In this document: in pieces, positions 2,482 through 60,052 of the stretch
Layout: the number at the start of each line of letters is the position of its first letter
How positions within the stretch are numbered: position 1 is the stretch's first letter
Notes under the pieces: generated by a model
Told to the model about the DNA's origin: nothing
The model's input: the letters and a program-made list of their open reading frames with translations, nothing else
The model's database searches: none
Position numbers and translations under genes: made by a program
DNA from: Thermodesulfobacteriota bacterium
GTDB taxonomy: Bacteria > Desulfobacterota > RBG-13-43-22
Direction: 5' to 3'
DNA: 64,000 bases
NCBI GenBank assembly: GCA_040755035.1
Contig: JBFMBU010000313.1
Span: 3,763-67,762, forward strand

Positions 2482-2590
2482 GAATGCTACGCAAATTGGA
2501 TAGAATGCATTAAAAATAAGAGATAAACCCGGACCAAATGAGGAATTTTCGAATATCCAATTTGGGTTCCGGCTGATCCGGGTTGGGATA
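2482..2590. repeat. Dispersed intergenic repeat family A, copy 1. It has a 5' GAATKCTACGCAAATTGGATAG box, an internal AAACCCGGACC...GGTCCGGGTT inverted pair and a 3' GGTTCCGGCTGRTCCGGGTTGG box.
   Basis: Near-identical blocks at 23982-24090, 48917-49024 and 59786-59912. A 3' half lies at 60005-60052. Confidence 0.75.
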
Positions 2591-2665
2591 TTACACTAAG
2601 ATGAAGGGATTATAAATCAAGAAAAAATTTCGGTCAAAAAGAAAAAGGATTTAACAGTAAAAATT

Positions 2666-2741
2666 TGGTGGGCCGTGTAGGGCTCGAACCTACGACCTAC
2701 TGATTAAGAGTCAGTTGCTCTACCTGTTGAGCTAACGGCCC
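2666..2741 (-). tRNA. tRNA-Lys (anticodon CTT), CCA encoded
   Basis: Reverse complement reads GGGCCGTTAGCTCAACAGGTAGAGCAACTGACTCTTAATCAGT...GGTTCGAGCCCTACACGGCCCACCA. It has a cloverleaf with a 7-nt anticodon loop C-T-CTT-A-A and a T-loop GGTTCGAGCCC. Confidence 0.9.
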
Positions 2742-2810
2742 TAAAGATGTTATTTTCTAACATAAACGGCAGAAATTGACAAGGGGAAAAATGTATCCCG
2801 GGAAAAAGAA

Positions 2811-3307
2811 TTATGGACTATTTTTATCTGGTTGCGGTTTCCCCCGTTCTTTTTCTACCCCTTCCAGAATCCTTTCTATTCTCGATTTTGGCAACCGGCC
2901 GAAAAGTTTTTGCAGGGCTTCCTTGGAAAAATGCTCCTGCAGAAAGGCGTTTACTGGGATTCGCTCCTGCCAGCAACCGATCAGATTGCGGCAGGGCAGG
3001 GTCCCTTGAGAACGGCGACAATACTGGAAGTTAAGCGTCATCCCCAGTTGGTTGCAATAAGCTTCCAGAGTATCGTAGGCGTCGATCATGATCCGGAAGG
3101 GCTTCAAGTGACCGGGAGGACCGGACACGCTGACGCGGAGCAGGGGGGGACACGGGGAGCGAGAGACAGGGAGACACGGGTAATAATAAAGATGTGGTCA
3201 AGAACAGATAGAATATCATCCTTTACGAGGTCCTTCACTTCACTGTTCACCCGTGTCGCCAAATTCTCCGCCTCACCGTGCCTCTCCAAATAACGGTTCA
3301 AAAGCAA
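2811..3307 (-). pseudogene. Hypothetical gene split by a -1 frameshift in a low-complexity, G7-containing repeat region. The N-terminal part is ORF 3104-3307 and the C-terminal part is ORF 2811-3128.
   Basis: Two protein-like minus-strand ORFs in different frames overlap at 3104-3128. The downstream frame is open up to 3197 and spans a G7/C7 tract (3143-3149) inside a degenerate LPVSP-coding repeat. A 1-nt indel would fuse them into a ~165-aa protein. The C-terminal part contains four Cys. Confidence 0.35.
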
Positions 3308-3327
3308 AACAGCTCCTTGACTGAAAA

Positions 3328-4695
3328 TCAGATCTTTGGTTTGGGAAATTTTTCCAGGGCTTTTAAGGATTTTTGAATGTCTTCGTCAGGCAATTCGAAA
3401 TCAGCCAGTTTGCCTTCGAAGTAGGCATTGTAAGCCATCATATCCACCAGCCCGTGACCGCTCCAGTTCACCAGGATGGTCTTGGCCTTGCCTTCTTCCT
3501 TGCATTTTTTAGCCTCGGAAATAACCGCGGCTAGGGCATGGTTGGTCTCCGGGGCCGGGATATACCCTTCCGTTCTGGACCAGGTCACGCCGGCGGCAAA
3601 GGTTTCCAGTTGCTGTACGGCTCGGGGTTCAATCAGTTTATCCAGGATCAATTGAGAAACAATAGGAGCCATACCGTGATAGCGCAATCCACCGGCATGG
3701 ATTGGGGCCGGGACGAAGTTATGGCCCAGGCTATGCATGGCCAGCAAGGGGGTCATCTGGACCGTATCCCCGAAATCATAGACAAAGGGACCTTTGGTCA
3801 TGGTCGGGCATGAGGCCGGTTCTACGGCGATAATTTCAATCTTTTTCCCGCCGATCTTGTCCCGGACAAAGGGCAGGGCCATTCCGGCGAAGTTGCTTCC
3901 GCCTCCGGCACAACCGATGACGATGTCCGGATAGTCTCCGGCCTTCTGAAGCTGCTTTTGTGCTTCCAGGCCGATGATGGTCTGATGAAGCAATACGTGG
4001 TTCAAGACACTGCCCAGGGAGTACTTGCTGCCGGGATTGGTTACGGCATCTTCCACGGCTTCACTGATGGCAATCCCCAGGCTGCCCGGGGAGTTGGGGT
4101 CCTGTTCCAATATGGTTCGACCGGCCTTGGTGTCCGGGCTGGGGCTGGGGATACAGGTCGCTCCCCAGGTGTTCATCATCAGCCTGCGGTAAGGTTTCTG
4201 ATCATAACTGATACGGACCATATAGACCTTGATTTCCAGACCGAATAGGGCGCCGGCAAAACTCAGGGCACTGCCCCATTGTCCGGCACCGGTTTCAGTG
4301 GCAATGCGTTTGGTCCCGGAAATTTTATTGTAATAAGCCTGGGGAACGGCCGTATTGGGTTTATGACTGCCGGCCGGACTGACCCCTTCGTTTTTATAAT
4401 AGATCTTGGCCGGGGTTTGTAAAAAGGCTTCCAGGGCATACGCTCGTATTAAAGGAGAAGGACGCCAGATCAGGTATTTTTCCAGGACCGGTTCCGGGAT
4501 ATCGATAAACCTTTGGGGACTGACCTCCTGTTCAATAAGGGGCATGGGAAAGATGGGGGCCAGATCGTCAGGGCCGACCGGCTGACCGGTCCCGGGATGC
4601 AAAGGGGGTTGCATTCCATTGGGCATGTCTGGCAAAATGTTGTACCACTGGCGGGGCATTTCATCTTCGGTCAATAGAATTTTTTTGGGCACCAT
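3328..4695 (-). CDS. trpB2: TrpB-like pyridoxal-phosphate-dependent enzyme (tryptophan synthase beta paralog, TrpB2 type)
   Basis: Full-length match to the TrpB-like family layout: [16 protein letters not shown] lysine motif, [12 protein letters not shown], and a [10 protein letters not shown] glycine loop. Confidence 0.85.
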
Positions 4696-4851
4696 AAATC
4701 CTCCTTCTCCAATATTCGGTTTTATTTTTGTTGCATATTATAGTGTTTTAAATGAAAATATGAGGCCGAATGCCGCAGCTGAAAAAAGCCGGGAGGGCTA
4801 TGGGTCACACTATATATAAGGACCCACTTCACTGTCAATGGTATTTATTCA

Positions 4852-5175
4852 ATGGAGAACGATACAAAATCAATAAAAAGCGTAGTCGGGGAGCTATGGT
4901 CCGGCGGGGACGCGGTGATCGATCCCACGATCACTTCCGTTATCGCGGCCTGGTCCAGGGTCGTACCGAAATCCTTGAGGTCGGGAATGTGTCTGGAAGG
5001 TTTTAGGGAGGGGACCCTTCATGTCCTCGTCTCCAATCCGGTAGTCGGCCAGCAGCTGCAATTTCAGAAAGAAATCCTAAGGGAGAAGATGAATGCCCTT
5101 CTGGGGAAGCCGCTGATCAAGGGTTTTCGGATCAAATCCGGTACGTTTGCCCCTATCCATCCAACCAGCGTTTGA
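4852..5175 (+). CDS. DUF721 (DciA-like) domain protein
   Basis: V.P.SL..G.L.V.V..P....QL.F.K..L..K.N..LG...I..F..K pattern characteristic of DUF721. Confidence 0.55.
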   Translation: MENDTKSIKSVVGELWSGGDAVIDPTITSVIAAWSRVVPKSLRSGMCLEGFREGTLHVLVSNPVVGQQLQFQKEILREKMNALLGKPLIKGFRIKSGTFAPIHPTSV

Positions 5176-9147: not shown

Positions 9148-9156
9148 ACGGATAGC

Positions 9157-21021: not shown

Positions 21022-21915
21022 TTGATTGATTTTAGGGCGGAACTGAAAACCTATCAAGACCGTATTGACGGAGCGCTGCGGGCTTATTTCCCCACGGCCG
21101 CCTACCTTACCCCCCGGGTACGGAAAGCCATGGCCTACAGCCTCTTTGCCGGTGGAAAACGGATCAGGCCTATCCTCTGTCTGATGGGCTGCCGGGTTGT
21201 GGGCGGGCGTATCGCATCGGCCCTTCCGGCGGCCTGCGCCCTTGAATATATCCATACCTATTCCTTGATCCATGACGATCTCCCGGCCCTTGATAACGAT
21301 GATTTTCGAAGGGGTCGGCTGACCTGTCATAAAAAATTCGGGGAAGCGACGGCGATCCTGGCCGGTGACGCCTTGCTGACCGAAGCCTTTGTTTTGCTTT
21401 CCCGGAGGGAGGTACTAAAATCGGTTCCGAGTGCGGCACGACTGCAAGTGATCCATATTGTAGCCGAGGCCGCCGGTCTTCGAGGGATGATCGGTGGACA
21501 GGAGGCCGATTTAGAGGCTGAAAAGAAAAAGGTGACCAAGACTTTTATAAATTTCATTCACCAGCGCAAAACCGGGGCCATGATCAAGGCCTCTCTGCTG
21601 TGCGGAGGAGTGATCGGAGGGGGGAGCAAGGCCCAGCTTAGAGCACTGGCCGCCTTTGGAGAAAAGATAGGCTTGGCTTTCCAGATCAGGGATGATTTGT
21701 TGAATGTGGAAGGTCAGCCCCGGCTCATGGGAAAACGAACCGGGACGGATGAAAAAAAGGCCAAAGCCACCTATCCCCTCTTGGTGGGCCTGGAAACTTC
21801 CCGGGCGGTTGGCAGGGAGCTGGTCAATCAGGGCGCTGCGGCCCTTGGGATTTTTGGGAATAGGGCGCAACCCCTGATCCGGCTGGGGACGTATGTCCTT
21901 TCCAGGGACCGTTAG
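21022..21915 (+). CDS. ispA: Polyprenyl diphosphate synthase (farnesyl diphosphate synthase / geranyltranstransferase)
   Basis: First Asp-rich motif [17 protein letters not shown] and second Asp-rich region [12 protein letters not shown] start. Confidence 0.85.
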
Positions 21916-21970
21916 GGAAAGGAAGTATCCAAGGGCAATTCCAAATGGAAAGCAACAAGTTGAAGAAACC

Positions 21971-23893
21971 ATGAATCAAAAAATTAGAATTCCGGTAGAG
22001 GATGAACCCTCCTCCCTGTTAAGCACTATTTCCGGTCCCCAGGACCTGAAATCCCTATCCCTGCCCAGATTAAAGCAGGTGGCGGAGGAAGTACGAAAAC
22101 TGATCATTGAGACGGTCAGCCGGAACGGCGGGCATTTGGCTCCCAATTTGGGTGTGGTAGAATTGACCATTGCCCTTCATTATGTGTTTAACAGTCCTGT
22201 GGACAAGATCATTTGGGATGTGGGACACCAGTCGTATACCCATAAAATTTTATCCGGTCGGAGGGAGCTGTTCCCCAGCCTAAGGACTTTCGGTGGGATC
22301 AGCGGATTTCCAAAGAGACAGGAAAGTCCTCATGATGTCTTCGATACCGGTCACAGCGGCAATTCCATTTCGGTGGGATTGGGGATCACAGCGGCCAGGG
22401 ACCTGAAAAGGGAGCCGTTCAAGGTCATCGCCGTTATTGGAGACGGTTCGATGACCTCCGGAGAAGCCTTTGAAGGGCTGAACCAGGCCGGACATCTGAA
22501 CAAAGATCTGATCGTGATCTTAAACGACAACGAGATGTCCATTTCTCAGAATGTGGGAGCCCTTTCCTCCTTTTTAAGCAAACGGCTGACCGGAAAGGGT
22601 TTCGTTCATTTCAAGAGAGACGTGGAATCTTTTTTCAAATCCATTCCCGGGATCGGGGAGAACCTGATTCAGTTCGTAAAAAAAGGGGAGGATTCTTTTA
22701 CCGGGTTTTTCACCCCGGGCATGCTTTTCGCCGCTTTGCATTTTGACTATGTGGGGCCGGTCAAGGGCCACCAATTGGAGGACCTGATCACCACCTTTGA
22801 AAATATCCGTCATCTCCAGGCCCCGGTACTGGTCCATGTCCTGACCACCAAGGGCAAGGGGTATCCGCCGGCGGAAAAAAATCCCAGCTATTTTCACGGG
22901 GTAGGGCCTTTCGATCTTGAAGCAGAGGATCCGAGTCTGAAAAAACCTGGAGCCGTTCCAACCTACACCGAGGTCTTCGGATCGACCCTCATCGAATTAG
23001 GGGAGAGGGATCTTCGTCTGGTGGCCATCACCGCTGCCATGCCCGAGGGGACCGGTTTGCATGGATTTGCCCAAAGATTCCCCCAGCGTTTCTTTGATGT
23101 GGGGATCGCCGAACAACATGCCGTCACCTTCGCCGCCGGATTGGCCTTGGAGGGTTTGAGGCCCATAGTCGCTTTGTATTCCACTTTCATCCAGCGGGCT
23201 TATGACCAGGTATTGGAAGATGTCTGTCTCCAGAACCTGCCGGTCATTTTCGCCCTGGATCGGGCCGGAATCGTAGGGGAAGACGGACCGACCCATCAGG
23301 GGCTTTTTGATCTATCCTTCCTGCGCATCCTCCCCAATCTGATGATCCTGGTCCCAAAGGACGAGAAAGAGCTAAGAGATATGCTTTATTCAGCCCTTAC
23401 TTATGCCGGACCGGTGGCCATACGCTATCCCCGTGGAGCCGGAGTGGGCGTATCGTTGACCGTTCCTCCGCAAACCTTGAATCCAGGACAATGGGAGGTC
23501 CTCCAGGAGGGGGATGCTTTGGCCCTGCTGGCCATAGGGAATACGGTCTATCCGGCCCTGGAAGCGGCAAAACTTTTATTAAGACAGGGGAGAAAGGCCC
23601 AAGTGGTCAATGCCCGTTTTCTTAAACCTCTGGACGAAGGACTTCTGCTGGCCTTAGGAAGGAAATTTAAAACGATTATTACTGTGGAAGAGAACCTCTT
23701 GGCCGGCGGTTTCGGGAGCGCTGTTATGGAAAAGCTGCAACAGTTGTCATGCCCGGGGGTGCGGGTCAGGTCCTTAGGGATTCCCGATTGTTTTGTCGAA
23801 CAAGGGGCCCCGCAAAAACTAAGAAGCCTTTATGGTCTGGACGCCGAGGGGATTTTCCGGGTCTTAGCCGAGGAACTCAGCCTGTCCCAATAA
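21971..23893 (+). CDS. dxs: 1-deoxy-D-xylulose-5-phosphate synthase
   Basis: TPP-binding GDG(x)n N motif ([15 protein letters not shown]), GHQSY, and transketolase-like C-terminal domains. The ORF-track start at 21893 is possible, but MNQKIR fits Dxs N-termini better. Confidence 0.85.
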
Positions 23894-23981
23894 AAGAAAC
23901 CGGGGACGATAAAAGGATTTGACCAGTGACCGCCAAGGGGGTTATCTTCTCCCTGAGCGGGGCCTTAGGGCCTTAAGGTTT

Positions 23982-24090
23982 GAATTCTACGCAAATTAAG
24001 TGAAATTAATACAAAAAAGGGAATTTCCCCGGACCGAACGGAACATTTTCGGAATTCCGAATTTGGTCCCGGCGGGTCAGGGCTGGAATC
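23982..24090. repeat. Dispersed intergenic repeat family A, copy 2
   Basis: gaattctacgcaaatt...ccccggaccgaacgg...ttttcggaattccgaatttggtcccggcgggtcagggctgg. Aligns with copies at 2482, 48917 and 59786. Confidence 0.75.
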
Positions 24091-24127: not shown

Positions 24128-24871
24128 ATGAGGATGCGAAAAATCCGGGTGGACCGTCTGCTGGTCGAAAAAGGGCTGGCCCCTTCGCATGAAAAGGCCC
24201 GGGCATTGGTCTATGCCGGGGTAGTCCGAGCGGGGAAGATAGTGGTTGAAAAACCCGGGAAAGCCGTGGACCCGGGGTTGTCTTTGGAGGTAGATACCGC
24301 TCCCCACCCTTTTGTCAGCAGGGGGGGGGTAAAATTAGAGAAGGCCCTGGCCGAGTTTGAGGTTGAGGTCCTGGGCCGGGTGGCCCTGGATATTGGGGCT
24401 TCCAGCGGAGGATTTACCCATTGCCTTTTGTTGAGAGGAATTAAGCGGGTTTATGCCGTCGATGTCGGTTATGGTCAATTGGCCTGGGAGATCCGTCAGG
24501 ATCCCCGGGTCAAGGTCATGGAACGGGTTAATGCCAGGTATCTTACCCCCGGGGATATCGGCGAAACGGTGGATATTTTGGTTGTAGACGCTTCTTTTAT
24601 TTCCTTGAAATTAATTATCCCCCCCTTACTGCCCTTAGTCAAAGGGGAGGGAGAAATCATCGCCCTGATCAAACCCCAATTTGAAGTCGGAAAAGGGAAG
24701 GTGGGGAAAGGAGGAGTGGTTAGAAGTGAGGAGGATCACTTAAAAGTCATTGAGGACCTTTCCCTTTTTTTTAAAGAGAGGGGCCTGAAGGTTATGGGAA
24801 TCACGGAATCTCCTATTCAAGGGGCCAAGGGGAATCGGGAATTTTTTATTTATTTGATAAATAAGGCCTAA
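24128..24871 (+). CDS. tlyA: TlyA-family rRNA (cytidine-2'-O)-methyltransferase (hemolysin A-like)
   Basis: S4-like N-terminus (RVDRLLVEKGLAPSHEKARALV) and FtsJ-like MTase core (VALDIGASSGGFT). Confidence 0.85.
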   Translation: MRMRKIRVDRLLVEKGLAPSHEKARALVYAGVVRAGKIVVEKPGKAVDPGLSLEVDTAPHPFVSRGGVKLEKALAEFEVEVLGRVALDIGASSGGFTHCLLLRGIKRVYAVDVGYGQLAWEIRQDPRVKVMERVNARYLTPGDIGETVDILVVDASFISLKLIIPPLLPLVKGEGEIIALIKPQFEVGKGKVGKGGVVRSEEDHLKVIEDLSLFFKERGLKVMGITESPIQGAKGNREFFIYLINKA

Positions 24872-35542: not shown

Positions 35543-35565
35543 TAAAATAGGGCTCATCTCCAAAG

Positions 35566-35632
35566 GATGGTTTCGCAAAAAGTCCCATTTTGTCATTTCG
35601 AGGAGAGAATCGACGAAAAATCTTTAAGGTTT
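35566..35632. repeat. Dispersed intergenic repeat family B, copy 1 (GGTYTCGCAAAAAGNCC...ATTTTGTCATTTCGAGGAGAGAANCGACGANAAATCTTT)
   Basis: Nearly identical to 59930-60001. The 5' part recurs at 61176. Confidence 0.75.
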
Positions 35633-37613: not shown

Positions 37614-37730
37614 AGATCAATCCATCTAAGTTAGTGTTAAAAGAACAGGGTGGATACCAAATTCGATTATAGTAGCTTTTAGAAAAAGGACCTGCATCAG
37701 AACCTCCTCCGGATCCGCTACACCTGCTTG

Positions 37731-38813
37731 CTATATCTCAGTGAAATCGGTGACCAGATCTCCGGCGAAGGGTTTGAATTTTTCTTTATCAATACATTTA
37801 TTGTAAGCCTCTGCCCCGGAAATCCATCCTTTTTTTACAAAGTCCATAATGGCGTCGTCCAGGGATTGCATTCCGTACTTTCTCCCGGTTTGAATGACCG
37901 AGGGGATCTGATAGGTTTTGCCTTCCCTGACTAAGTTGCGCACGGCGTGGGTGCCGATCAGGATTTCCAGGGCGGCGATCCGTCCTTTTCGGTCTATTCT
38001 TTTAAAAAGGGTTTGGGAGATCACCGCCCGTAAAGCATCGGCCAACGTGGACCGGATTTGGGACTGCTGATCGGCAGGGAAGACCTCGATGATACGGTCC
38101 ATGGTTTTGGAGGCACTGATCGTGTGCAGAGTGGCAAAGACCAGGTGGCCGGTTTCGGCAGCTTCAATGGCCAGGGAAACCGTTTCCAGATCCCTCATTT
38201 CTCCCACCAGAATAATGTCCGGGTCCTCACGCAAGGCCCCCCTCAAAGCCGAGGCAAACGACCGGGTATGCCGGCCGACTTCACGGTGGTTAATCGTGCA
38301 ATTGATGTTATGATGTACGAATTCTATCGGGTCTTCGACAGTCAGGATATGGTCTTTGCGCTCCCGATTGGCCTGATCGATAATCGCCGCCAGGGTGGTG
38401 GATTTACCGCTGCCGGTAGGACCGGTCACCAGGACCAGGCCTTTTGGCAACAAGGCCAGGCGCTTAATAACCATGGGGAGTCCCAACTCCTCCACCGTGG
38501 AGATCTTGCTCGGGATTTCTCTGAAGACCGCCCCGACTCCATGGAGCTGGCGGAAAAAATTGGCCCGGTATCTGGCTAAACCTGGAATCTCATAGGCGAA
38601 ATCCAAATCACCGGTTTCCTCAAAATGCTTGATCTTTTCCTCGGGGGTGACTTCATATAACAAGGCCTTGAGCTGATCATTTTCCAGAACGTCAAACTTC
38701 ACCCTTTCCAGCTCACCACGGATGCGGAGGATCGGTTGAGCCCCTGAGGAGAGATGGAGGTCAGAGGCCCCATGGTCGTGCATTAATTTAAAAAAAGCGT
38801 CGATCTGTGCCAT
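37731..38813 (-). CDS. pilT: Twitching motility ATPase PilT
   Basis: GPTGSGKSTT, and the AIRNLVREGK motif is present as AVRNLVREGK. The N-terminus MAQIDAFFKLMHDHGASDLHL is canonical PilT. Confidence 0.9.
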   Translation of the reverse strand: MAQIDAFFKLMHDHGASDLHLSSGAQPILRIRGELERVKFDVLENDQLKALLYEVTPEEKIKHFEETGDLDFAYEIPGLARYRANFFRQLHGVGAVFREIPSKISTVEELGLPMVIKRLALLPKGLVLVTGPTGSGKSTTLAAIIDQANRERKDHILTVEDPIEFVHHNINCTINHREVGRHTRSFASALRGALREDPDIILVGEMRDLETVSLAIEAAETGHLVFATLHTISASKTMDRIIEVFPADQQSQIRSTLADALRAVISQTLFKRIDRKGRIAALEILIGTHAVRNLVREGKTYQIPSVIQTGRKYGMQSLDDAIMDFVKKGWISGAEAYNKCIDKEKFKPFAGDLVTDFTEI

Positions 38814-42582: not shown

Positions 42583-42614
42583 AGAAATCCATCCGGAGCA
42601 AAGACCAAGATGAT

Positions 42615-42669
42615 CAGTACAGAATCAGTACAGAATCAGTACAAAATCAGTACAAAATCAGGACAGAAT
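42615..42669. repeat. 11-bp tandem array, 5 units (CAGTACAGAAT x2, CAGTACAAAAT x2, CAGGACAGAAT), directly 3' of the aconitase-family gene
   Basis: Direct reading. Confidence 0.85.
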
Positions 42670-44618
42670 CAACCCCGTGCCTTTTGATTTCTCTTAAGGT
42701 AAGACAGTAGACCACCGGCCAGGAAAATTTCCATTTTTTCCGTGGGGACCAAGGCTTTTAAAAGGAAATTTTTCTTTTGGGTCAGGTTAAAGGCCTGGAT
42801 CTCTTTTCCCTGTTTGAGGGCTTTCAAGACCTGATGAAACTCCAACCAATCGTCTTGCTGCAGGGATAAATAATCCTTCGGTTCTAAAAAAACCAGAGGA
42901 AGGATCCCGTAATTGATCAGATTACTTAGATGGATTCTGGCAAAAGACTTGGCTACCACAGCACGGATGCCTAAAAACATAGGGGCCAGGACCGCATGTT
43001 CTCTTGAAGAACCCTGTCCATAATTTTCACCTCCGATAATGACGCCCCCCTGGGCCTGAGCGGCCCTTTCGGTAAAAGTTGGGTCCAGACGGGAGAAGGT
43101 AAAACGGGAGATGGCCGGGATGTTTGATCGAAACGGCAGAACCTCGGATCCTCCAGGCAGGATGTCGTCGGTAGAGATGTGGTCACCGGTTTTAATCAAG
43201 ACCCGGGCCTGGAAGGAAGCCGATAAAGGTTTACTAAGCGGGAGGGGCTTGATATTCGGCCCGCGGACAATTTTTATCCCTTGCGGATTGGGGGTGGGGG
43301 GGTGAAGCAGAGAGGCGGACTGGCTTCGGGGAGGGAGATTGGAAACCTTTGGCAGGGAAATTTTTTCCTTAAAAGGGTCGACCACTTCTCCCTTGAGGGC
43401 GATTAAAGCGGCGGTCAGCGGATTACATAAATAAACCCGGGCGGAGAGGGTTCCGCTCCGACCCCTGAAGTTTCGATTATAGGTCCTGAAGGAAATTCCA
43501 TTTTCCGGAGGCGCTCCCCCCATACCAATGCAGGGACCACATGCGGATTCCAGGAGACGGGCGCCGGAAGCCAGGAGTGCCCCGAGATCCCCTTTTTCAG
43601 CCAGGGCCTTCATGACTTCTCTGGAACCGGGATTGATTAAAAGGCTTAGGCCGGGGTGGATGGGTTTCCCGGCCAGGAGGGTGGCTACGGACTTCAGAGA
43701 AGCATAGGAGGAATTGGAACAACTTCCGATACAGACCTGGTGGACCTTCAATCCGATAATCTTTTTCAGTGGTACAATATTATCCGGGCTGAAAGGACAG
43801 GCGACCAACGGTTCCAGTTGATCGAGATTTATTTCTAAATGATCCTCATAGACCGCTTCCGGGTCAGGAGACAGCTTTATCCAATCTCTCGCCCGTCCTT
43901 GGGTCTCTAAAAAGGACCGGGTTATTTCATCGCTGGGGAACAGGGAGGTCGTGGCCCCCAGTTCAGCCCCCAGGTTACAAATAGTAGCCCTTTCGGTGGC
44001 CGAAAGGGTCTTAAGGGCCGGGCCTTGAAACTCATGTACCCATCCCACTCCTCCACGAACCGTCAGGCGACGGAGCAGTTCCAAAGCCACGTCCATGGCC
44101 GTAACCCAGGGTCTCTTCAGATGGCCGATAAGCCGAATACGCCTTACCTTGGGTCGAACAAGAAAATAGGGGTAACCGGCCATAGCCGCGGCGATGTCCA
44201 ATCCCCCGCAGCCCATAGCCAGCATGCCCAGACCGCCGGCGGTAGGGGTATGGCTGTCCGATCCCAATAGGACTTGACCTGGTCTGGCAAACCGTTCCAG
44301 ATGTACCTGATGGCAGATGCCGTTTCCGGCCGGGGAGAAGTAGGCCCCAAAGCGGGCGGCCGAGCTTTGCAGATAGAGATGATCATCCGGATTGCGGGAA
44401 TCCGCCTGAAGCGTGTTGTGGTCTACATAGGAAACCGCCAGGGGGACCTGTATGCGTTTTTTTTTGATGGCTTCAAACTGCAGATAGACCATGGTCCCGG
44501 TGGCGTCCTGAGTCAAGACCTGGTCTATTTTTAGGGGAATGGTTTCCCCGTTTGTTTTCTGGCCTCTGCTCACATGGTGATTGACAATTTTTTGAAAAAG
44601 CGTCTCCTGCATAACCAC
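42669..44618 (-). CDS. Aconitase-family hydro-lyase with fused large (LeuC-like) and swivel (LeuD-like) domains
   Basis: GSDSHT, the Cys ligand region GSCSNSS (one of the conserved Fe-S cluster ligands), and a C-terminal swivel domain. 649 aa. Confidence 0.7.
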   Translation of the reverse strand: MVMQETLFQKIVNHHVSRGQKTNGETIPLKIDQVLTQDATGTMVYLQFEAIKKKRIQVPLAVSYVDHNTLQADSRNPDDHLYLQSSAARFGAYFSPAGNGICHQVHLERFARPGQVLLGSDSHTPTAGGLGMLAMGCGGLDIAAAMAGYPYFLVRPKVRRIRLIGHLKRPWVTAMDVALELLRRLTVRGGVGWVHEFQGPALKTLSATERATICNLGAELGATTSLFPSDEITRSFLETQGRARDWIKLSPDPEAVYEDHLEINLDQLEPLVACPFSPDNIVPLKKIIGLKVHQVCIGSCSNSSYASLKSVATLLAGKPIHPGLSLLINPGSREVMKALAEKGDLGALLASGARLLESACGPCIGMGGAPPENGISFRTYNRNFRGRSGTLSARVYLCNPLTAALIALKGEVVDPFKEKISLPKVSNLPPRSQSASLLHPPTPNPQGIKIVRGPNIKPLPLSKPLSASFQARVLIKTGDHISTDDILPGGSEVLPFRSNIPAISRFTFSRLDPTFTERAAQAQGGVIIGGENYGQGSSREHAVLAPMFLGIRAVVAKSFARIHLSNLINYGILPLVFLEPKDYLSLQQDDWLEFHQVLKALKQGKEIQAFNLTQKKNFLLKALVPTEKMEIFLAGGLLSYLKRNQKARG

Positions 44619-47635: not shown

Positions 47636-48679
47636 ATGAACATCAGAGTGCAGATCGAAACCAGAGAAGAGCAGGTCTTATCCCCTCTGGCAGCCTTCAG
47701 TTCCAGAAGCCGCGGCCGGGATATCCCTGAGGAAGAATGTGCCATTCGAACGGCTTTCCAGAGGGATCGGGACCGTATTATCCACTCCAAGGCCTTTCGC
47801 CGTTTGAAACATAAAACCCAGGTATTTCTGGCCCCTACCGGGGATCATTACCGCACCCGTCTGACCCATACCCTGGAGGTTTCTCAAATCGCCCGAACCA
47901 TTTCCCGGGCCCTTGGGTTGAATGAGGATTTGGCTGAAGCCGTGGCCCTGGGACATGATCTGGGACATACCCCGTTCGGACACGCGGGGGAAGAGGTCCT
48001 TAATGATATCGTCCCCGGGGGTTTTAATCATACCCAACAGAGTCTTCGGGTGGTGGAGGTCCTGGAAAAAGGGGGGAAAGGGCTGAACCTGACCCTCGAG
48101 GTGCGGGACGGAATTATTAAACATTCCAAAGGCAGGGGAGAAATTCTTCCCCGCGGCTCGGCTGACAAGGCTTTGACCATGGAAGGGCAGGTAGTAAGGG
48201 TGGCTGATATCATCGCCTATATCTGCCACGATCTGGACGATGCCATTCGCGGGGGGGTCATTTCCGTGGAGGATGTACCTGTTTTTTGCACCCGTATGCT
48301 GGGGGACCGGAGTTCTAAAAGGATTGATACCATGGTGCGAAGCTTAGTCGAATTCAGTCTCAAGGATCCCTCCCAGGGGCTTTCCATGGACGAGGAGGTC
48401 CTGGAAGCCATGGTCACTCTGAGGGCTTTTTTATATGAGCGGGTCTATGATCTGGGTAGGGTCCATGATGATTTTATCAAGGCCCGGAAAGTGATCAGTG
48501 AATTGTTTCAGGTTTTAGTTTCCGTCCCGGACCTTATGGAAACCTATCTGGGACCGAACAGGGATCCGGAGACCTCTGCCGGACAGAGGGCGGCGGATTT
48601 CATCGCCGGAATGACCGACCGCTATGCCCTGAATCTTTATGAAAGGATTTTTTTACCGAAGCCCTGGGCGGTGTTGTAA
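47636..48679 (+). CDS. dGTPase-like HD-domain phosphohydrolase (deoxyguanosinetriphosphate triphosphohydrolase-like protein)
   Basis: RDRDRIIHSKAFRRLKHKTQVF, the HD motif TRLTHTLEVSQIAR and GHDLGHTPFGH. Confidence 0.8.
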   Translation: MNIRVQIETREEQVLSPLAAFSSRSRGRDIPEEECAIRTAFQRDRDRIIHSKAFRRLKHKTQVFLAPTGDHYRTRLTHTLEVSQIARTISRALGLNEDLAEAVALGHDLGHTPFGHAGEEVLNDIVPGGFNHTQQSLRVVEVLEKGGKGLNLTLEVRDGIIKHSKGRGEILPRGSADKALTMEGQVVRVADIIAYICHDLDDAIRGGVISVEDVPVFCTRMLGDRSSKRIDTMVRSLVEFSLKDPSQGLSMDEEVLEAMVTLRAFLYERVYDLGRVHDDFIKARKVISELFQVLVSVPDLMETYLGPNRDPETSAGQRAADFIAGMTDRYALNLYERIFLPKPWAVL

Positions 48680-48916
48680 TTTTTGTTGGGGAAAATTGTC
48701 ATGGGAAAAAGAAGTACTCCCGGCATCCTGTAAAATAGAGATATATTAAAAGGTTAATCTTGACAAAGCCCTTCCGGGATGATAACCTATAATTATCATT
48801 AGGTTTATTTTTCTTGCCCCCTGGCCCTGAGGGGAGGGAATTTTTTCGTCTGACCTTGTGGGGGAAGGGTCTTTTGAAGAAACGCGCCTGCCTGGGGCAA
48901 TAGGAACTTAAAAGCA

Positions 48917-49024
48917 GAATTCTACGCAAATTGGATAGTATTTATTTAGAAACAAGATCTAAACCCGGACCGCATGAGGTGTTTGCGAACATCCCCCTCC
49001 GGTTCCGGCTGGTCCGGGTTGGAA
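48917..49024. repeat. Dispersed intergenic repeat family A, copy 3 (best-preserved copy)
   Basis: gaattctacgcaaattggatag...aaacccggaccgcatgagg...ggttccggctggtccgggttgg. Confidence 0.8.
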
Positions 49025-49049
49025 ACCCATAAGGTAAAAAAGGTCAGAG

Positions 49050-50573
49050 ATGATTTCCGAAATACCCGTTTTCAAACCCGAACAACTTCCCAGGATCCCC
49101 TTGACCCTGGAAGGAATTTCTTCCCGGTTTATAAGGGAAAATCTGGTTATCCCCCTTGAATATAAAAATAATATTTTAAAAGTGGCTATGGGCTGCCCGG
49201 AAGATCGGGAGACGGTCGATGCCCTGGAAGTAGCCACTTCGGCTGAAGTCGTGGTTTATGCCGGTGATCCCTCCCTGATTTCCGATTATATCGCCAAATT
49301 TTACGGCCAGGAATCGCAGAATATCAACCGGATCATTGAGGACATCGGCACCGATTCCTTGGAATTCCTGAAGGAAGAGGAAGAGGACATCGGCCATTTA
49401 AAAGACCTGGCTTCGGAGGCCCCGATTATCAAGCTGGTCAATATGGTCATTTCCCGGGCCGTTGAAAACCGGGCCAGTGATATTCACATTGAGCCCTTTG
49501 AGGATGAATTGAAGGTGCGCTACCGCATAGACGGCGTGCTTCACGATATTGAATCCCTGCCCAAGAATCTCCAGGCCGCCATCCTCTCCCGGATTAAAAT
49601 CATGGCCAAACTCAATATCGCCGAAAAGAGGCTCCCCCAGGACGGCCGGATCAAATTGAAGGTCATGGAAAAGGAAATCGATCTCAGGGTATCCACCATA
49701 CCCGTTCTATACGGTGAGGGGGTGGTGATGAGGATCCTGCAGAAGGAAGGGATCACCATCGACCTCAACCTCCTGGGGTTTGCGCCCCGAACCCTATCCC
49801 TTTTTGATCAGCTTATAACAAAATCCAACGGAATTATCCTGGTCACCGGGCCCACCGGCAGCGGGAAGACCACCACCCTTTATGGGGCACTGGACAAAAT
49901 CAATTCGCCGGACAAAAAGATCATTACCGTTGAGGACCCCATAGAATATCAATTGAAAGGGATCAACCAAATCCAGGTTAAACCACAAATCGGCTTGAAT
50001 TTTGCCGGCACCCTTCGTCATATTGTCCGACATGATCCGGATATTATCATGATCGGCGAAATCCGCGATTTGGAAACGGCCGAGATCGCTATCCAGTCGG
50101 CCTTGACCGGACATCTGGTTTTTTCTACCTTACATACCAATGATGCTCCCAGCGCCATCACCCGTTTGCTGGATATGGGGGTAGAAAGTTTTCTCCTTTC
50201 TTCCACCATTCGAGGCGTTCTGGCCCAGCGTTTGGTGCGGCTCATCTGTCCGGTTTGTAAAACGGTCGACCCCGCCCCGGCGGTGCCGGAGGAGTGGGTT
50301 CATCTGCAAGTGGGGGATATGGGGACTTTATATCGAGGGGCCGGCTGCGAAAGATGTGCCGGAACCGGGTATTGGGGGCGAATCGGTATCTTTGAACTGT
50401 TTCTGATCGACGATCTCATACGACGAATGATCCTGCAGGGTGCCGATGTGATTCAAATCCGGGAGGCGGCCAGAAAAAACGGGATGAAAACTTTGCTGGA
50501 AGACGGCCTGGAAAAGGTGAAGGCCTCCCTGACCACGCTGCCTGAAGTCTTAAGGGTCACACAAGAGGTCTAA
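49050..50573 (+). CDS. gspE: Type II secretion system ATPase GspE
   Basis: Short N1/N2 domain, GPTGSGKTTT, His box and the tetracysteine CPVC...CERC motif. It heads a gspF-pseudopilin-gspK-L-M cluster. Confidence 0.85.
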   Translation: MISEIPVFKPEQLPRIPLTLEGISSRFIRENLVIPLEYKNNILKVAMGCPEDRETVDALEVATSAEVVVYAGDPSLISDYIAKFYGQESQNINRIIEDIGTDSLEFLKEEEEDIGHLKDLASEAPIIKLVNMVISRAVENRASDIHIEPFEDELKVRYRIDGVLHDIESLPKNLQAAILSRIKIMAKLNIAEKRLPQDGRIKLKVMEKEIDLRVSTIPVLYGEGVVMRILQKEGITIDLNLLGFAPRTLSLFDQLITKSNGIILVTGPTGSGKTTTLYGALDKINSPDKKIITVEDPIEYQLKGINQIQVKPQIGLNFAGTLRHIVRHDPDIIMIGEIRDLETAEIAIQSALTGHLVFSTLHTNDAPSAITRLLDMGVESFLLSSTIRGVLAQRLVRLICPVCKTVDPAPAVPEEWVHLQVGDMGTLYRGAGCERCAGTGYWGRIGIFELFLIDDLIRRMILQGADVIQIREAARKNGMKTLLEDGLEKVKASLTTLPEVLRVTQEV

Positions 50574-56181: not shown

Positions 56182-56812
56182 AGTATTATACATAGCGATT
56201 CCCATTTTGTTTATCCTGGCCGGCTTGGTATTTTATGAATACGGCTATCTCCGGATAAAAACGGAAGAAGCCGTTATTCGAGAGGAACAAGAAAGCAAGG
56301 CCAAGACCCTGGAAAAATATCTTTCCGTTATTGCCGAAAGACCGGATCTGGAAAAAAGGTTGGCGGCACTCAAAGAGCAAAGAAAGTCGGAAAACGCCAA
56401 AATGGTTGAAGGAGAAACCTTTTCCCTGGCCGCGGCCGCACTGCAGGACATGGTCAAGAGCATCATCGTCAGTCGCAACGGTGTCATCTCCAGCGAGCGT
56501 ATGGGCAAGGAAGAGGAATTCACTCCCGGGCCGCCCGATCCGCCCCGCGATGGTCTTCCCAAACAGAAAGGCGAAAGGACTTCCTTGCCGGGAAAAGAGA
56601 AGAAAGAAGAAAAAAAACGTTTTAGAATCGTCCAGGTCAGCTTCGATTTTACAGCACCGGACATCGGTGTGTTGAGGGACATCGTTTTTTTTATCGAAAC
56701 CAAAACCCCCTACCTGGTGATCAAAGAACTGGATGCCCGGGTCAGAAATTTCCGGGACCCCCGGGAACTTATGGTCAGACTGGATGTCACCGCCCTGTAT
56801 GGAGGACGGTAA
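56168..56812 (+). CDS. gspM: GspM/PilO-like inner-membrane assembly protein
   Basis: Single N-terminal TM segment (LYIAIPILFILAGLVFY), a coiled coil and a C-terminal alpha/beta domain. Start at MKKNRV. Confidence 0.6.
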   Translation: MKKNRVLYIAIPILFILAGLVFYEYGYLRIKTEEAVIREEQESKAKTLEKYLSVIAERPDLEKRLAALKEQRKSENAKMVEGETFSLAAAALQDMVKSIIVSRNGVISSERMGKEEEFTPGPPDPPRDGLPKQKGERTSLPGKEKKEEKKRFRIVQVSFDFTAPDIGVLRDIVFFIETKTPYLVIKELDARVRNFRDPRELMVRLDVTALYGGR

Positions 56813-56813
56813 T

Positions 56814-57515
56814 ATGATTTTAAGGAAAATATTCTCCCAGGTTACTATCCTGAACGGCCTGTTGATAGCGGGGATCGCTGTTTTCTTTTTTGGTTTTCTT
56901 TCCCCGCGCTTGAATACGGATGTAACCTACGCCCCGACGATCATCAAAAAAAAACCTATGGGCAGAAGCGCGTCCGAGACTTCCACCGCGCAAGCCCCTT
57001 TGTCTCCCCAGGATTACCGGACCGTTGCCGATGAAAATTTGTTTCATCCCGACCGTATCGTTCCCCCGGAAAAAAAGGCGGAAGCAGCGCTCCCCAAACC
57101 GGAATTTGTCCTCTATGGGACTTTACTTGCGCCGGATTTGAGCCTGGCCTATATGGAGGATAAGAAAGCTCCGGTGACCACTCCCGGTAGGGGACAGAGG
57201 CAGACCGCTTTAAAGATCGGAGAAACCCTGAGCGGTTTCCGGTTGAAGGAAGTAGCCAAAGACCGGGTGGTGATGGTTCGGGGGGAAGAATCCCTTCAGG
57301 TCCTGCTTCAGGACCCTGGAACCTCTAAACCCAGGGAAGCGGGAACAGGGGCCGCTGTCAGAGGCTCGGTCTCATCTCCCGGGAGGACACCAACCTCATC
57401 TCCACCCCTGCCGAACAGGACACCACCTCCGCTTCCTCCTGGGCAACGGGTGCCGGTTCCGGAGAGAATCCCTCCTCCCGCTCTTCCTCCCCCTCCGATG
57501 CCGCCGGGGAGATGA
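56814..57515 (+). CDS. gspC: GspC/PilP-like protein with Pro-rich C-terminus
   Basis: N-terminal TM segment, a central domain, and a C-terminal PPPLPPG...PPPALPPPPMPP region. Confidence 0.5.
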   Translation: MILRKIFSQVTILNGLLIAGIAVFFFGFLSPRLNTDVTYAPTIIKKKPMGRSASETSTAQAPLSPQDYRTVADENLFHPDRIVPPEKKAEAALPKPEFVLYGTLLAPDLSLAYMEDKKAPVTTPGRGQRQTALKIGETLSGFRLKEVAKDRVVMVRGEESLQVLLQDPGTSKPREAGTGAAVRGSVSSPGRTPTSSPPLPNRTPPPLPPGQRVPVPERIPPPALPPPPMPPGR

Positions 57516-57644
57516 GATAGAGAAAACCTCGGATTTTCGATTTGGGTTGCCGCTGGTTCGGGTCGGGAAGATTAGAGAAAAGGTCGTTTGCTGCCGAAGT
57601 GAAAACCGGAAAATTACTTTGGAAGCGTTCAGTTTTTTTGCAAT

Positions 57645-59663
57645 TTATTGGGGCTTGTTCAAGAGCAGGTCCATTTTCTTCATATCCTTGGTCACGCCAT
57701 CCAACCGATGGATATAAATCGAGGTCAGGTTCTCGGCCTCCTGTTGATTGCGGATCACCTTGGGGGTGAGGAGAAGAACGATTTCGGACCTTGATTTTTC
57801 CCTGGTGGTTGATCCGAACAGGTACCCTAACAAAGGAATTTTGCTCAGCCAGGGGATCCCTCCCCGGGTAGTATCCGTTTTATCTCTGATCAGTCCTCCA
57901 ATAACAATGGTCTGACCGTCCTGGACCACCAGATTGGTTTTAGCCTCCCGCTTAAAGATGATCGGGTATTCCTGATCGTCATAAAGCTTCCGTAAACGGT
58001 AATCGGAAACCTCCTGGGACACTTCCAGATTAACCAGTCCGCCGTCATTAATTAAAGGGGTTATTTCCAACATGGTGCCGGTGTCTTTATATTGGATGGT
58101 CCTTTGGATTTGGGTCGTGCCGGTAATATTGGTTTCGGAGGTGACGATGGGGATCTGGTCGCCGATCTGTATCTTGGCCTTGCGGTTGTCCATGGCCAGG
58201 ATATGGGGGGAGGCCAGGACGGACAGCTTGGATTCCGTGGCCAGGGTGCGTAGAAAACCCCGGATAAGGCCGGTCTTGTCGATACCCAAAAAGGTAAAGC
58301 CGGTGGTGGCGGCCGTTTCGGAAGGGGAAAAACCGAAATTGAAAAAATTGGAATCCACCTTACTTTTGACCGACCACTCCAGACCGAATTGCAGGTCATC
58401 CCCCAAAGTAATCTCGGCGATGAGGACTTCGATCATCACCTGGCGGGGGACGATATCGATCTTTCTGATGGTTTCCAGGATCAGGGCATAGTCATCCGGC
58501 GTGGCCAGAATGATCAGGGAATTGGTCACTTCATCCGGAAAGATTTTGGTGATATCGGAAACCAAGGCCTCTCCGGCGGCAGATGGGCCCAAAGTGATGC
58601 GGGATTGAACCGCCGGGGTCGTTTGCCCGCCGGCGGGAGAGGTCGGTCGGGCGGGAGTAGTAACGGTGGCCTGGGCCGGGGGGGCGGTCCGGGGGGGTGC
58701 TGCAGTTCCTAAATAAATCTGTTGCAGCAGAGCGGAGAGGTCCTTGGCCTTGCTGTTTTGGACCGGGTAGACATAGACCTGGGGTTTGATCTGCTTGAGC
58801 TGTTCGCTGTCGAATATTTCGATGAGATGGAGGAGTCGTTTCACATTGGCGTCCGTATCGACGATAATGAGATAATTGATCTTGGGCACATCGACGATAA
58901 CGGCATTGGCCGATAAAAAAGGGGTCAAAACCCGGACCATCTCCGTTGAGGAAAAATATTTGATGGGTACCACCTGCAGCAGGCCCAATCCGGACAGGGT
59001 CACCTTTTCAGGCGTTCGGCCGATGCTGACCGGTGCCGGTTCTTTGGACATGTCGGCGATGGGGATGATCCGGTACAGGCCTCCCTCTTCCACCACTCCG
59101 ATGCCATTTAAACGGAGGATGACCTCCATGAGCGGCAGGACGTCCTCCCTGCCGACCGGGGTCACCGAGCGGAAATTGACCCTTCCTTTGACCTTTGGAT
59201 CGATAATGTAATTATAGCGCAGAACCCCGCCGAATATGGTTTGAATCACGGAATAGACATCGGCATCATCGAAATTTAAGCTGATATCCCCTCTTTTAGG
59301 GGCCGGCTTTTGCTGATTGAAGGCCCCTTGACCATTTTGAACAGGGGCAGGAAGCGAAGTCCCATTCGGGGGCCCGGGTTGGGGAGGAGGGACCTTGTCG
59401 CTTCTCCCATCAACGGGTGGGGGCGGAAGGGACGGAGGCAAGGGGACAGGCGTCGGAGGAGTAGAAGAGGGCGCGCTCTGGGTTTTGGGCGGCGGCAACG
59501 GAGGGGGCATTACCTGTTGTGTTTGGGCCTGGGCAAACTCCTTGGGAAGCGGGGGTTGGGACCAGGTTGGGTGACCGAGGGCCAGCACCACAAGGCAGAG
59601 ACCAAGAAAAGCGATAAAACTACACCGGACTGCCCGCATTCCCAAAAGAATTTTCCTCCTCAA
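57645..59663 (-). CDS. gspD: Secretin GspD/PilQ family
   Basis: N0/N1 domains, a C-terminal secretin domain (VVQDGQTIVIGGLIRD...IPWLSKIPLLGYLF) and a Pro-rich N-terminal linker. Confidence 0.85.
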   Translation of the reverse strand: MRRKILLGMRAVRCSFIAFLGLCLVVLALGHPTWSQPPLPKEFAQAQTQQVMPPPLPPPKTQSAPSSTPPTPVPLPPSLPPPPVDGRSDKVPPPQPGPPNGTSLPAPVQNGQGAFNQQKPAPKRGDISLNFDDADVYSVIQTIFGGVLRYNYIIDPKVKGRVNFRSVTPVGREDVLPLMEVILRLNGIGVVEEGGLYRIIPIADMSKEPAPVSIGRTPEKVTLSGLGLLQVVPIKYFSSTEMVRVLTPFLSANAVIVDVPKINYLIIVDTDANVKRLLHLIEIFDSEQLKQIKPQVYVYPVQNSKAKDLSALLQQIYLGTAAPPRTAPPAQATVTTPARPTSPAGGQTTPAVQSRITLGPSAAGEALVSDITKIFPDEVTNSLIILATPDDYALILETIRKIDIVPRQVMIEVLIAEITLGDDLQFGLEWSVKSKVDSNFFNFGFSPSETAATTGFTFLGIDKTGLIRGFLRTLATESKLSVLASPHILAMDNRKAKIQIGDQIPIVTSETNITGTTQIQRTIQYKDTGTMLEITPLINDGGLVNLEVSQEVSDYRLRKLYDDQEYPIIFKREAKTNLVVQDGQTIVIGGLIRDKTDTTRGGIPWLSKIPLLGYLFGSTTREKSRSEIVLLLTPKVIRNQQEAENLTSIYIHRLDGVTKDMKKMDLLLNKPQ

Positions 59664-59785
59664 CGGCTAAAAATACCTTTTCTAAGCATAAAATCTTACA
59701 CTAAAAAAACCTTTTTAACAAATAAAAACTTCATCTTCTACGTTTTTTTTTAAGGGATTAGTAACAAAAGAATAAAATTAGAATA

Positions 59786-59912
59786 AAATTCTCTGCAAAA
59801 TAGAAGGAACTTATTAAAAAGAACAGACCTTGGACCCGGACCCATTGAGTTATTTTCAATATGTTTCTTGTCACCGGATCTTGATCGCGGCTGGGCCGGA
59901 TTGGGTTGTGGG
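59786..59912. repeat. Dispersed intergenic repeat family A, copy 4 (diverged)
   Basis: aaattctctgcaaaatagaagg...ggacccggacccattgag...cggctgggccggattgggttgtgg. Confidence 0.6.
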
Positions 59913-59929
59913 TTTTCGTTTTAGTAACT

Positions 59930-60001
59930 TGCAAATAGGATGGTCTCGCAAAAAGACCAATTTTGTCATTTCGAGGAGAGAAGCGACGAGAAATCTTTGA
60001 A
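59930..60001. repeat. Dispersed intergenic repeat family B, copy 2 (begins with hairpin GGTCTCGCAAAAAGACC)
   Basis: ~90% identical to 35566-35632. Confidence 0.8.
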
Positions 60002-60004
60002 GTA

Positions 60005-60052
60005 TTTTCGGAATTCCGTCTTGGTTCCGGCTGGTCCGGGCTGGGTTACGGA
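60005..60052. repeat. Repeat family A, partial copy (3' half: TTTTCGGAATTCCG...GGTTCCGGCTGGTCCGGGCTGG)
   Basis: Matches the 3' halves of the copies at 24040-24090 and 48990-49024. Confidence 0.7.

Follow-up and report, generated by a model that had tools for sequence, protein, structure and literature searches.

A dispersed intergenic repeat family of a Thermodesulfobacteriota bacterium as probable miniature derivatives of an unclassified 1.7-kb element encoding the protein p505

The 64,000-nucleotide stretch of contig JBFMBU010000313.1 of a Thermodesulfobacteriota bacterium (hereafter the window, at its full length) contains a dispersed family of small repeats, repeat family A. A covariance model made from 22 subfamily representatives and run on the whole window with filters off gave exactly five significant matches, all on the plus strand, the next best match having an E-value of 1.3. 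These are copies c1 (2465-2589; 115 bits, E-value 2e-22), c2 (23965-24089; 96 bits), c3 (48900-49025; 113 bits), c4 (59769-59907; 82 bits) and c5 (59921-60047; 32 bits, E-value 1e-4). Copy c1 is full length, c2 and c4 are degenerate, the latter with a longer variable middle, and c5 keeps the left end (TTAG followed at the boundary by TAACTT) and an intact right half. Furthermore, a degenerate right-end fragment, ATTTTCGATTTGGGTTGCCGCTGGTTCGGGTCGGG, was found on the plus strand at 57533-57567 by the repeat search and in the sequence itself; it is below the covariance-model threshold and sits just past the stop codon of the open reading frame (ORF) 56733-57515. Repeat finding without guidance also recovered family A, under four of its repeat groups. 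A preliminary description of this DNA had reported four full copies and one half copy. The family is real and far beyond chance, as shown by the five significant matches and the independent repeat finding, and the full copies and their locations stand; however, the supposed half copy (60005-60052) is the right part of the full-length c5, and each copy begins about 17 nt further left than had been described, with (T/A)TAG and T(G/A)ACTTAAG.

All copies are intergenic, as previously described, and the gene assignments around them hold. Copy c1 is located between the start of a KE-repeat gene (minus strand, about 2449) and tRNA-Lys(ctt) (2666-2741, minus strand). It had been listed as upstream of the KE-repeat gene, but it is antisense to it, between the start of the gene and a promoter-like site (2637-2609, minus strand), so that its location is probably the 5' untranslated region of this gene. 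The promoter-like site is strong (TTGACC-17-TATAAT), with c1 downstream of it, and the KE-repeat gene (1292-2449, minus strand) encodes a 385-residue protein made largely of K/E-rich repeats, with a DNA period of 30/45 nt and no match in Pfam. Copy c2 lies in the spacer between dxs (21893-23893) and a tlyA-like gene (24128-24871; TlyA-like FtsJ/S4), and c3 between an HD-domain gene (47636-48679) and gspE (T2SSE, 49050-50573). Copy c4 is the first of a tandem pair with c5; the pair has the secretin gene gspD (57645-59663, minus strand) on its left and gspG (T2SSG, 60239-60673) on its right, and an unrelated 67-nt repeat (59937-60003) replaces or interrupts the middle of c5. This second small repeat is also found at 35564-35630 (90% identical) and contains TTTTGTCATTTCGAGGAGAGAA.CGACGA.AAATC, with an imperfect palindrome; in the 145 fetched loci that were checked, no copies beyond the two in the window were found. 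Since the pairwise identity of the family A copies in the window is just 60-78%, they are old, and all five are probably immobile relics. A replication-strand bias, considered because all five are on the plus strand, was rejected, as loci with two copies show mixed orientation.

The order of the element is left flank, T(G/A)ACTTAAGAAT, hairpin I, an AT-rich linker, the mid box ACCCGGACC, a variable stretch and the right box TTTTGGTTCCGGCTGGTCCGGGTTGGG, which is its end. Copies range between 119 and 139 nt, and up to 184 nt with inserts; the variable stretch has 35-90 nt and in some fetched loci (named here with L numbers; L044 and L006) shows extra hairpins. The left 45 nt or so consist of (T/A)TAG-T(G/A)ACTTAAG and then hairpin I with the loop CGCAAAATGGA. 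The 5' box of the preliminary description is itself this hairpin I, which has a 9-bp AU-rich stem (AAAATTCTA / TAGAATTTT) and a conserved 11-nt loop, CGCAAA(A/T)TGGA. The inverted pair noticed previously (AACCCGGACC / GGTCCGGGTT) is real, and in hairpin II ACCCGGACC(AG) pairs with (CT)GGTCCGGGT over a distance of 35-90 nt, with 94.5% of cells paired. In c1, as read from the sequence, hairpin I occupies 2481-2509 on the plus strand, with arms at 2481-2489 and 2501-2509 and the loop CGCAAATTGGA at 2490-2500, and its outer pairs are altered on both sides in relation to the consensus; the c1 mid box ACCCGGACC (2527-2535, plus strand) is the inverse of GGTCCGGGT within the right-terminal box TTTGGGTTCCGGCTGATCCGGGTTGGG (2561-2587, plus strand). 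In c3, also on the plus strand, the arms of hairpin I are at 48916-48924 and 48936-48944, the mid box at 48963-48971 and the right box at 49001-49022. The mid box and right box of c2 no longer pair fully.

The two ends of the element are asymmetric. The left hairpin is AU-rich, with 9 bp and an 11-nt loop, while the right hairpin is GC-rich, and they are unlike each other. Comparison of the left end (TGACTTAAGAATA...) with the reverse-complemented right end (CCCAACCCGGACC...) showed no terminal inverted repeats, and the sole inverted pair, mid box against right box, is internal. The left flank is TTAG in 41, ATAG in 12 and another NNAG in nine of the 69 scored sites. On the right, the flank varies (TTA in 11 of the 69 scored copies), and no matching direct repeats that would represent a target-site duplication were found at the two flanks.

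Hairpin I showed covariation in 101 distinct model-aligned copies: eight of the nine pairs are changed on both sides, and none of 500 shuffles reached the observed value, although the alignment had been fitted to the model. Changes on both sides of the pairs are found in L094, L121, L089, L069 and c1, and in L083 and L081 hairpins of other sequence are at the position of hairpin I. The compensatory base changes for which the preliminary description had proposed to look were thus found, and hairpin I is kept as a structure. Hairpin II is nearly without informative variation, partly because the search pattern had fixed the right box, and where it varies (c2 and c4) pairs are broken without compensation. 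Pairing between the hairpin I loop (CAAAATGGA) and TCCAATTTTG ahead of the right box was found in 69% of cells, no better than in shuffles.

The preliminary description had offered a shared cis-regulatory or structured-RNA module as one of its two readings. In such a case the element, for example a 5' leader, portable promoter or small RNA, would put tlyA, gspE and gspG, among other genes, under common control and would be conserved for this role. Three of the five window copies do lie 26-190 nt upstream of plus-strand genes, two of which are type II secretion genes, and many metagenome copies stop 8-30 nt ahead of a ribosome-binding site and ATG. Besides the two conserved hairpins and the covariation of hairpin I, which none of the 500 shuffles equalled, G-T pairs outnumber A-C pairs in hairpin I on the plus strand (33 versus 8), and some subfamilies fold better than shuffled sequences (z of -3.6 to -3.8). 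However, a single position (stem pair 8) accounts for 22 of the 33 G-T pairs, so that they probably represent one or few inherited changes, the folding of c1 and c3 is not better than that of shuffled sequences (z of -1.0 and -0.26), and the long hairpin lacks compensation where it varies. Orientation in relation to the downstream gene is random: in 44 full copies, with crude gene calls, that gene shares the strand of the copy in 22 and is on the other strand in 22, each of the four flanking configurations is represented, and c1 is antisense to its neighboring gene. Rfam at gathering thresholds matched in the window a tRNA alone, and four copy-bearing loci of metagenome-assembled genomes (MAGs) gave no match at the copies at an E-value of 5 or less, so a riboswitch or other known RNA was rejected at gathering and permissive thresholds. 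Neither a shared sigma-70-like promoter nor an intrinsic terminator was found in the element, and eye inspection and consensus scans revealed no common sigma-54 promoter. The distribution of the copies, described below, also argues against this reading, as orthologous dxs-tlyA spacers of relatives lack the element, copies lie inside a pseudogene (L009) and inside other repeats (L097), and 38 copies with 94% mean identity in one sample are unlike the evolution of a regulator. We consider a common regulatory module quite unlikely; if the copies affect tlyA or the gsp genes at all, this would be incidental, although individual copies could affect their neighbors.

Other candidates were also rejected. 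A peptide-coding element (as RPE) was discarded because one subfamily is open in one frame but others have stop codons, and an open frame of 43 codons is expected by chance. An insertion preference after terminator hairpins was discarded because the folding of left flanks is not better than that of right flanks or of control segments. Integron attC, dif/Xer and IHF sites, an IS630 TA target, an IS5 YTAR duplication and group II intron boundaries were set aside, as their core motifs or duplications are absent from the sequence.

Many further copies were found in MAGs and metagenomes. The MAG CAZVHO01 has four copies of about 132 nt on four contigs, which differ by at most a base or two, and CAZSTT01 has one, recognized by the left box-mid box pattern; the flanks of the copies in these two MAGs are unrelated and their boundaries are sharp. 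The exact 22-nt right-box pattern matched 105 metagenome stretches, of which about 75 are full elements belonging to about 24 subfamilies; this pattern demanded ...GGGYTGG, so small copies ending in TTAGG were missed. One subfamily has 38 copies with a mean identity of 94%, spread over different contigs from one sample. The covariance model gave 103 matches across the 646 kb of fetched loci. Nothing of the small element was found in viral contigs (IMG/VR) or plasmids (PLSDB), and literature searches with the box sequences gave nothing relevant.

Orthologous sites differ in carrying a copy. The synteny xseB-ispA-dxs-tlyA is kept in relatives of the window, and c2 is absent from the dxs-tlyA spacer in the closest of them (L121, L126, L123 and L125): in the 82% and 80% relatives these spacers have 108-128 nt and are unrelated, while in the 73% relatives dxs and tlyA overlap. 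Because the spacers of the relatives lack a copy, c2 is an insertion in the lineage of the window. The 82% relative has a copy downstream of tlyA instead (L121, 3745-3868; 88 bits). Within L121 3745-4041, this copy runs directly into the middle of an aminotransferase gene that is intact in the window (24952-26145); the junction reflects either a deletion associated with the element or a join made at the repeat during assembly. Furthermore, the copy in L009 interrupts a decayed AlbA_2/HATPase-like pseudogene, the reading frame of which continues directly behind the element, and the copy in L097 is inside another palindromic repeat unit. The small elements are therefore dispersed and polymorphic between relatives. 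Copies elsewhere and insertion polymorphism, two of the checks put forward in the preliminary description, were thus both found; the search for target-site duplications, also put forward there, gave no consistent one.

The sample with the 38-copy subfamily (Ga0233425), probably a single genome, shows further repeat families (L038, L118, L030, L097, L105 and L119). They include palindromic units of about 110 nt built on GGGCGGGG...CCCCGCCCCTAC and tandem arrays of about 50 nt (L062, 3360-3673; L119, 6427-6741; L024, 9785-9997), and some of the small copies are inserted in or adjoin other repeat families.

The ends of the small element were found on a larger one. In contigs L016, L026 and L098 the sequence is identical up to the right box and diverges, exactly at the boundary after GGGTTGGG, into three different flanks. 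Upstream of the right box and on the opposite strand, these contigs carry an ORF of about 505 amino acid residues, named p505, which is the sole gene between the ends of the element (352-1866 in L098; the element is also present in L128-L145). Contigs fetched for identical proteins showed the unit of about 1.7 kb, with identical p505, at 13 or more different sites with sharp, identical boundaries. Its layout between the flanks is CCTAACCCGGACAAGCCGG...ATG p505...CACTGATAAGAGACTAA or, with the variants included, CCTAACCCGGACAAGCCGGA(A/G)CC, about 95 nt, p505 from ATG to stop and TTTTGCATTCAATTTCACTGATAAGAGACTAA, the first and last of these adjoining the flanks. Reverse-complemented, the element begins at its boundary with TTAGTCTCTTA..GAAATTGAACGCAAAATGG... 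and ends at the other with ...TTTTTGGTTCCGGCT(T/G)GTCCGGGTT(A/G)GG; the variant-inclusive form of the left terminus is (T/A)TAGTCTCTTA..GAAATTGAA(T/C)GCAAAA(T)GG. As in the small element, no inverted repeats between the ends and no consistent target duplication were found, and TTAG or ATAG adjoins all p505-element sites.

The right 28 nt or so of the small element (TTTTGGTTCCGGCTGGTCCGGGTTGGG), including the right-terminal box of c1, are the counterpart of the gene-proximal terminus of the p505 element, and the left 45 nt or so that of the gene-distal terminus. The L098 element has exactly the 26-nt right box of the small element, with the same boundary after GGGTTGGG; this 26-nt variant is common to L098, c3 and metagenome copies, and c1 differs from it at two positions. 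A hand count between the L144 element and the left end of the small element gave 33 of 46 identical positions, including ACGCAAAATGG, and the large element has a hairpin at the same place. A profile of the small element, used with nhmmer, found the right end directly upstream of p505 in all 15 loci (E-values of 3e-8 to 6e-3) and the left end directly after the p505 stop in three of the 15 (0.011-0.021), with the left and right matches on the same strand and in the correct order.

Because both of its termini are homologous to the ends of the p505 element, repeat family A is probably made of non-autonomous, MITE-like internal-deletion derivatives (MITE, miniature inverted-repeat transposable element) of this unclassified element of about 1.7 kb. 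Of the two readings offered in the preliminary description, the small non-autonomous mobile elements are thus the one that holds, on near-identical copies with unrelated flanks, site polymorphism, insertion into a pseudogene and ends homologous to the 1.7-kb element. Its phrase MITE or REP-like (REP, repetitive extragenic palindromic) fits as far as MITE-like goes, but the copies are not classical MITEs, as they have neither terminal inverted repeats nor a target-site duplication.

Several points weigh against a derivation from the p505 element. Neither in the window nor adjoining the small copies of the fetched loci was a p505 gene found. At the left end the homology is modest: over some 45 nt the identity is roughly 60-72%, with E-values of about 0.01-0.02. 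Nothing in the large element corresponds to the mid box, for which reason this box was probably acquired later by the small one. Metagenome assemblers may misjoin contigs at repeats and so inflate the count of different flanks, although identical boundaries in independent samples argue against misassembly. Furthermore, TTAG on the left and TT(A/G)GG on the right could be bases of the element or of the target. Finally, searches of Pfam, NCBIfam, PDB and PHROGs showed no sequence-detectable relation of p505 to a transposase, a nickase or a solved structure.

The two inverted repeats and the asymmetric ends also recall elements that move as single-stranded DNA. The small element could be a REP doublet (REPIN) or a palindrome-associated transposable element (PATE) of the IS200/IS605 group, moved by a Y1 enzyme of the HUH type (a REP-associated tyrosine transposase, RAYT, or TnpA), with the p505 element sharing or targeting the same sequence. 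It has two short inverted repeats with a spacer of 35-90 nt, and solo right boxes occur in ordinary intergenic regions, a combination that resembles REP singlets and REPIN doublets (PMC3337134). The small element also has hairpins near both ends, no terminal inverted repeats or target duplication, and a conserved 4-nt left flank, which may be compared with TTAC, the target of IS608. But BLAST with approximate sequences of IS608 TnpA and Escherichia coli RAYT, together with a scan for the HUH...Y motif, detected no Y1/HUH ORF in the roughly 0.8 Mb of DNA that surrounds over 100 copies, although distant RAYTs could be missed in this way; the only match fell in L008, a chance locus unrelated to the element. 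A RAYT gene normally has its REPINs on either side. The copies lack a GTAG/CGTC head of the REP type, CTAC being found just at the stem-loop junction of hairpin I, and their left and right hairpins are unlike, whereas the ends of IS200/IS605 elements carry similar ones. Both termini of the copies correspond, in the correct order, to those of the p505 element, and solo boxes are rare in the high-copy sample, with one (L023) among about 50 loci. Mobilization by a Y1 enzyme is therefore held to be unlikely.

The solo boxes could also mean that the right box is a pre-existing, dispersed REP-like site that lies outside the mobile unit and serves as insertion target for the left module and for the p505 element. 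The box is indeed found with varied upstream partners (the short forms of L025/L031 and L083, and p505 in L016/L026/L098), solo right boxes adjoin NifU, Lon, TrxB and P-type ATPase genes, and IS110/IS1111 elements are known to target REP sequences. However, within a subfamily the whole 130 nt or so, including spacer and box, is copied as a unit with sharp boundaries, and in every p505 element the box is within the conserved terminus and divergence starts immediately after it. Since L025 and L083 still have hairpin-I-like modules, they look like shortened elements and not like empty targets, and a box outside the mobile unit is very unlikely. Structural variants of the small element (L082, 184-359; L079, reverse strand, 4318-4490; L025, 533-653; and L083) include a palindromic form that has the left module at each end, a left module joined to an unrelated hairpin whose stem has 24 bp, and short forms that keep hairpin I and the right box but lack the mid box, which suggests modular or one-ended events.

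Analysis of p505 showed a large family. An exhaustive profile search gave 10,434 clusters at 50% identity, many of them of fragments, and 7,995 of 8,000 scored candidates had E-values of 1e-10 or less; nearly all of these relatives are on contigs of 1.6-3 kb. Such contigs are what a collapsed repeat gives; with its many clusters and as the only gene between the ends, p505 behaves like a transposase gene. Its members are labelled "MarR family regulator" or "hypothetical" by their sources (NCBI). No Pfam or NCBIfam family matched p505, hence no curated transposase model, and only a weak C-terminal winged-helix match was obtained (residues 435-492); PF02486 gave no match at an E-value of 1 or less. 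Profile searches against PDB sequences found just winged helix-turn-helix (wHTH) proteins, with no solved structure detectable by sequence.

An AlphaFold2 model from a 47-sequence alignment (predicted local distance difference test, pLDDT, of 92.6) predicted a TBP-like domain and a winged helix, and not an HUH fold. Nine residues (D20, E112, Y141, Y143, E243, D247, Y317, R325 and E327) are invariant in p505 down to about 26-30% identity and K319 is conserved in at least 90% of the members; all of them are on predicted beta-strands. In Rep_trans and archaeal Rep-Arvir proteins, a TBP-like catalytic domain is joined with a wHTH (PMC13107129), and Rep_trans enzymes combine a D-D-E metal site with a catalytic Tyr located in a beta-sheet and carry the motifs YxKxxE and (W/L)xRxE (PMC5714925). 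The p505 string Y-x-K...R-x-E (Y317, K319, R325 and E327) is like YxKxxE / LxRxE of Rep_trans as judged by eye, and on the predicted model this likeness is a resemblance and not a demonstrated relationship. Literature searches found no insertion sequence (IS) family with a TBP-fold or Rep_trans-like transposase.

We propose that p505 would be the transposase of the 1.7-kb element and that, supplied in trans, it would move the small copies. Internal deletion of the p505 element would give a small copy that keeps both ends, and gain of an inverted copy of the right end in the variable middle would give the long hairpin II. The chemistry might be a single-strand nick-and-join of the rolling-circle or IS200/IS605/IS91 type, because the ends are asymmetric and hairpin-bearing, without inverted repeats or duplication and with TTAG on the left, and because p505 is predicted to have a TBP-like fold and winged helix as in tyrosine nickases of the Rep_trans type. 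A specifically Rep_trans-like chemistry, which draws on the predicted fold, is a tentative suggestion, somewhat under even odds. Equally tentative is the joint claim that p505 may be the founding member of a new transposase class, a TBP-fold and winged-helix tyrosine nickase distantly related to Rep_trans and Rep-Arvir, that would move an abundant IS family and its miniatures by single-strand nick-and-join at TTAG-bounded, hairpin-marked ends and would stand apart from DDE, DEDD, HUH, serine and tyrosine-recombinase enzymes.

Two other features of the window were recorded. An 11-nt tandem repeat, ATCAGTACAGA, with about five copies (42613-42667) lies directly 3' of an aconitase-family gene (42669-44618, minus strand). 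The 64 kb also include gsp/pil-like clusters, at least two in number, and four ATPase genes of the T2SSE family (26649-28346; 36453-38813, minus strand; 49050-50573), and the genes at 26649-28346 and 49050-50573 share DNA stretches that are 73-80% identical and form two further repeat families.

For the window, the result means that no common regulator joins tlyA and the secretion genes, all of which simply adjoin old transposon relics. The IS-like p505 family is missed by current annotation pipelines, although it is very abundant in sediment and wetland metagenomes and common in Thermodesulfobacteriota, and it breaks assemblies; recognizing it would lead to better annotation and repeat masking of Thermodesulfobacteriota MAGs. 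If p505 is a TBP-fold nickase, it would represent a new enzyme class among transposases, and the system, single-strand or rolling-circle if this is true, would have short defined ends (45 nt and 28 nt) and natural substrates of 125 nt.

Small non-autonomous IS derivatives are a known kind of element, and repeat family A is set apart from MITEs, PATEs and REPINs. Like classical MITEs (Correia/NEMIS, ERIC, RUP and MITEAba12), the copies have about 100-150 nt, are non-coding, mostly intergenic and hairpin-folding, occur in tens per genome and would come from the ends of an autonomous IS by internal deletion, presumably moved in trans; unlike them, the small element has no terminal inverted repeats or target duplication, and its parent is not a DDE-transposase IS. 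With the PATEs of IS200/IS605 it shares asymmetric ends, subterminal hairpins, the lack of inverted repeats and duplication, a left tetranucleotide (here TTAG) and orientation-specific insertion, but the hairpins differ, no Y1 TnpA/TnpB partner was found, and p505 has no HUH motif and no Y1_Tnp or OrfB match. The REP/REPIN-RAYT system is similar in its inverted pair of short GC-rich repeats with a spacer, scattered intergenic solos and old, diverged copies; it differs in that family A has an extra 45-nt left module, no GTAG/CGTC tag and no RAYT found near the copies, and in that the small element shares its ends with a multi-copy element, a RAYT being a domesticated gene present in single copy.

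IS91/ISCR elements and Helitrons likewise have no inverted repeats or duplication, and have a subterminal hairpin, a short junction sequence and chimeric or one-ended variants (here L082, L079 and the short forms), but their enzymes are of the HUH Y2 type with the tyrosines on a helix, while those of p505 are on predicted beta-strands and no HUH signature is present. Compared with Rep_trans (PF02486; RepC/RepD of pT181, RstA of CTXphi and relaxases of integrative and conjugative elements) and Rep-Arvir, p505 shows a predicted TBP-like beta-saddle with a winged helix after it, Tyr, Asp and Glu residues that are invariant and on predicted strands, a string that resembles motifs III and IV, and hairpin-bearing DNA as presumed substrate. 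Unlike Rep_trans, to which it has no detectable sequence similarity, p505 is about twice as long and belongs to a chromosomal multi-copy element and not to a plasmid or phage replicon.

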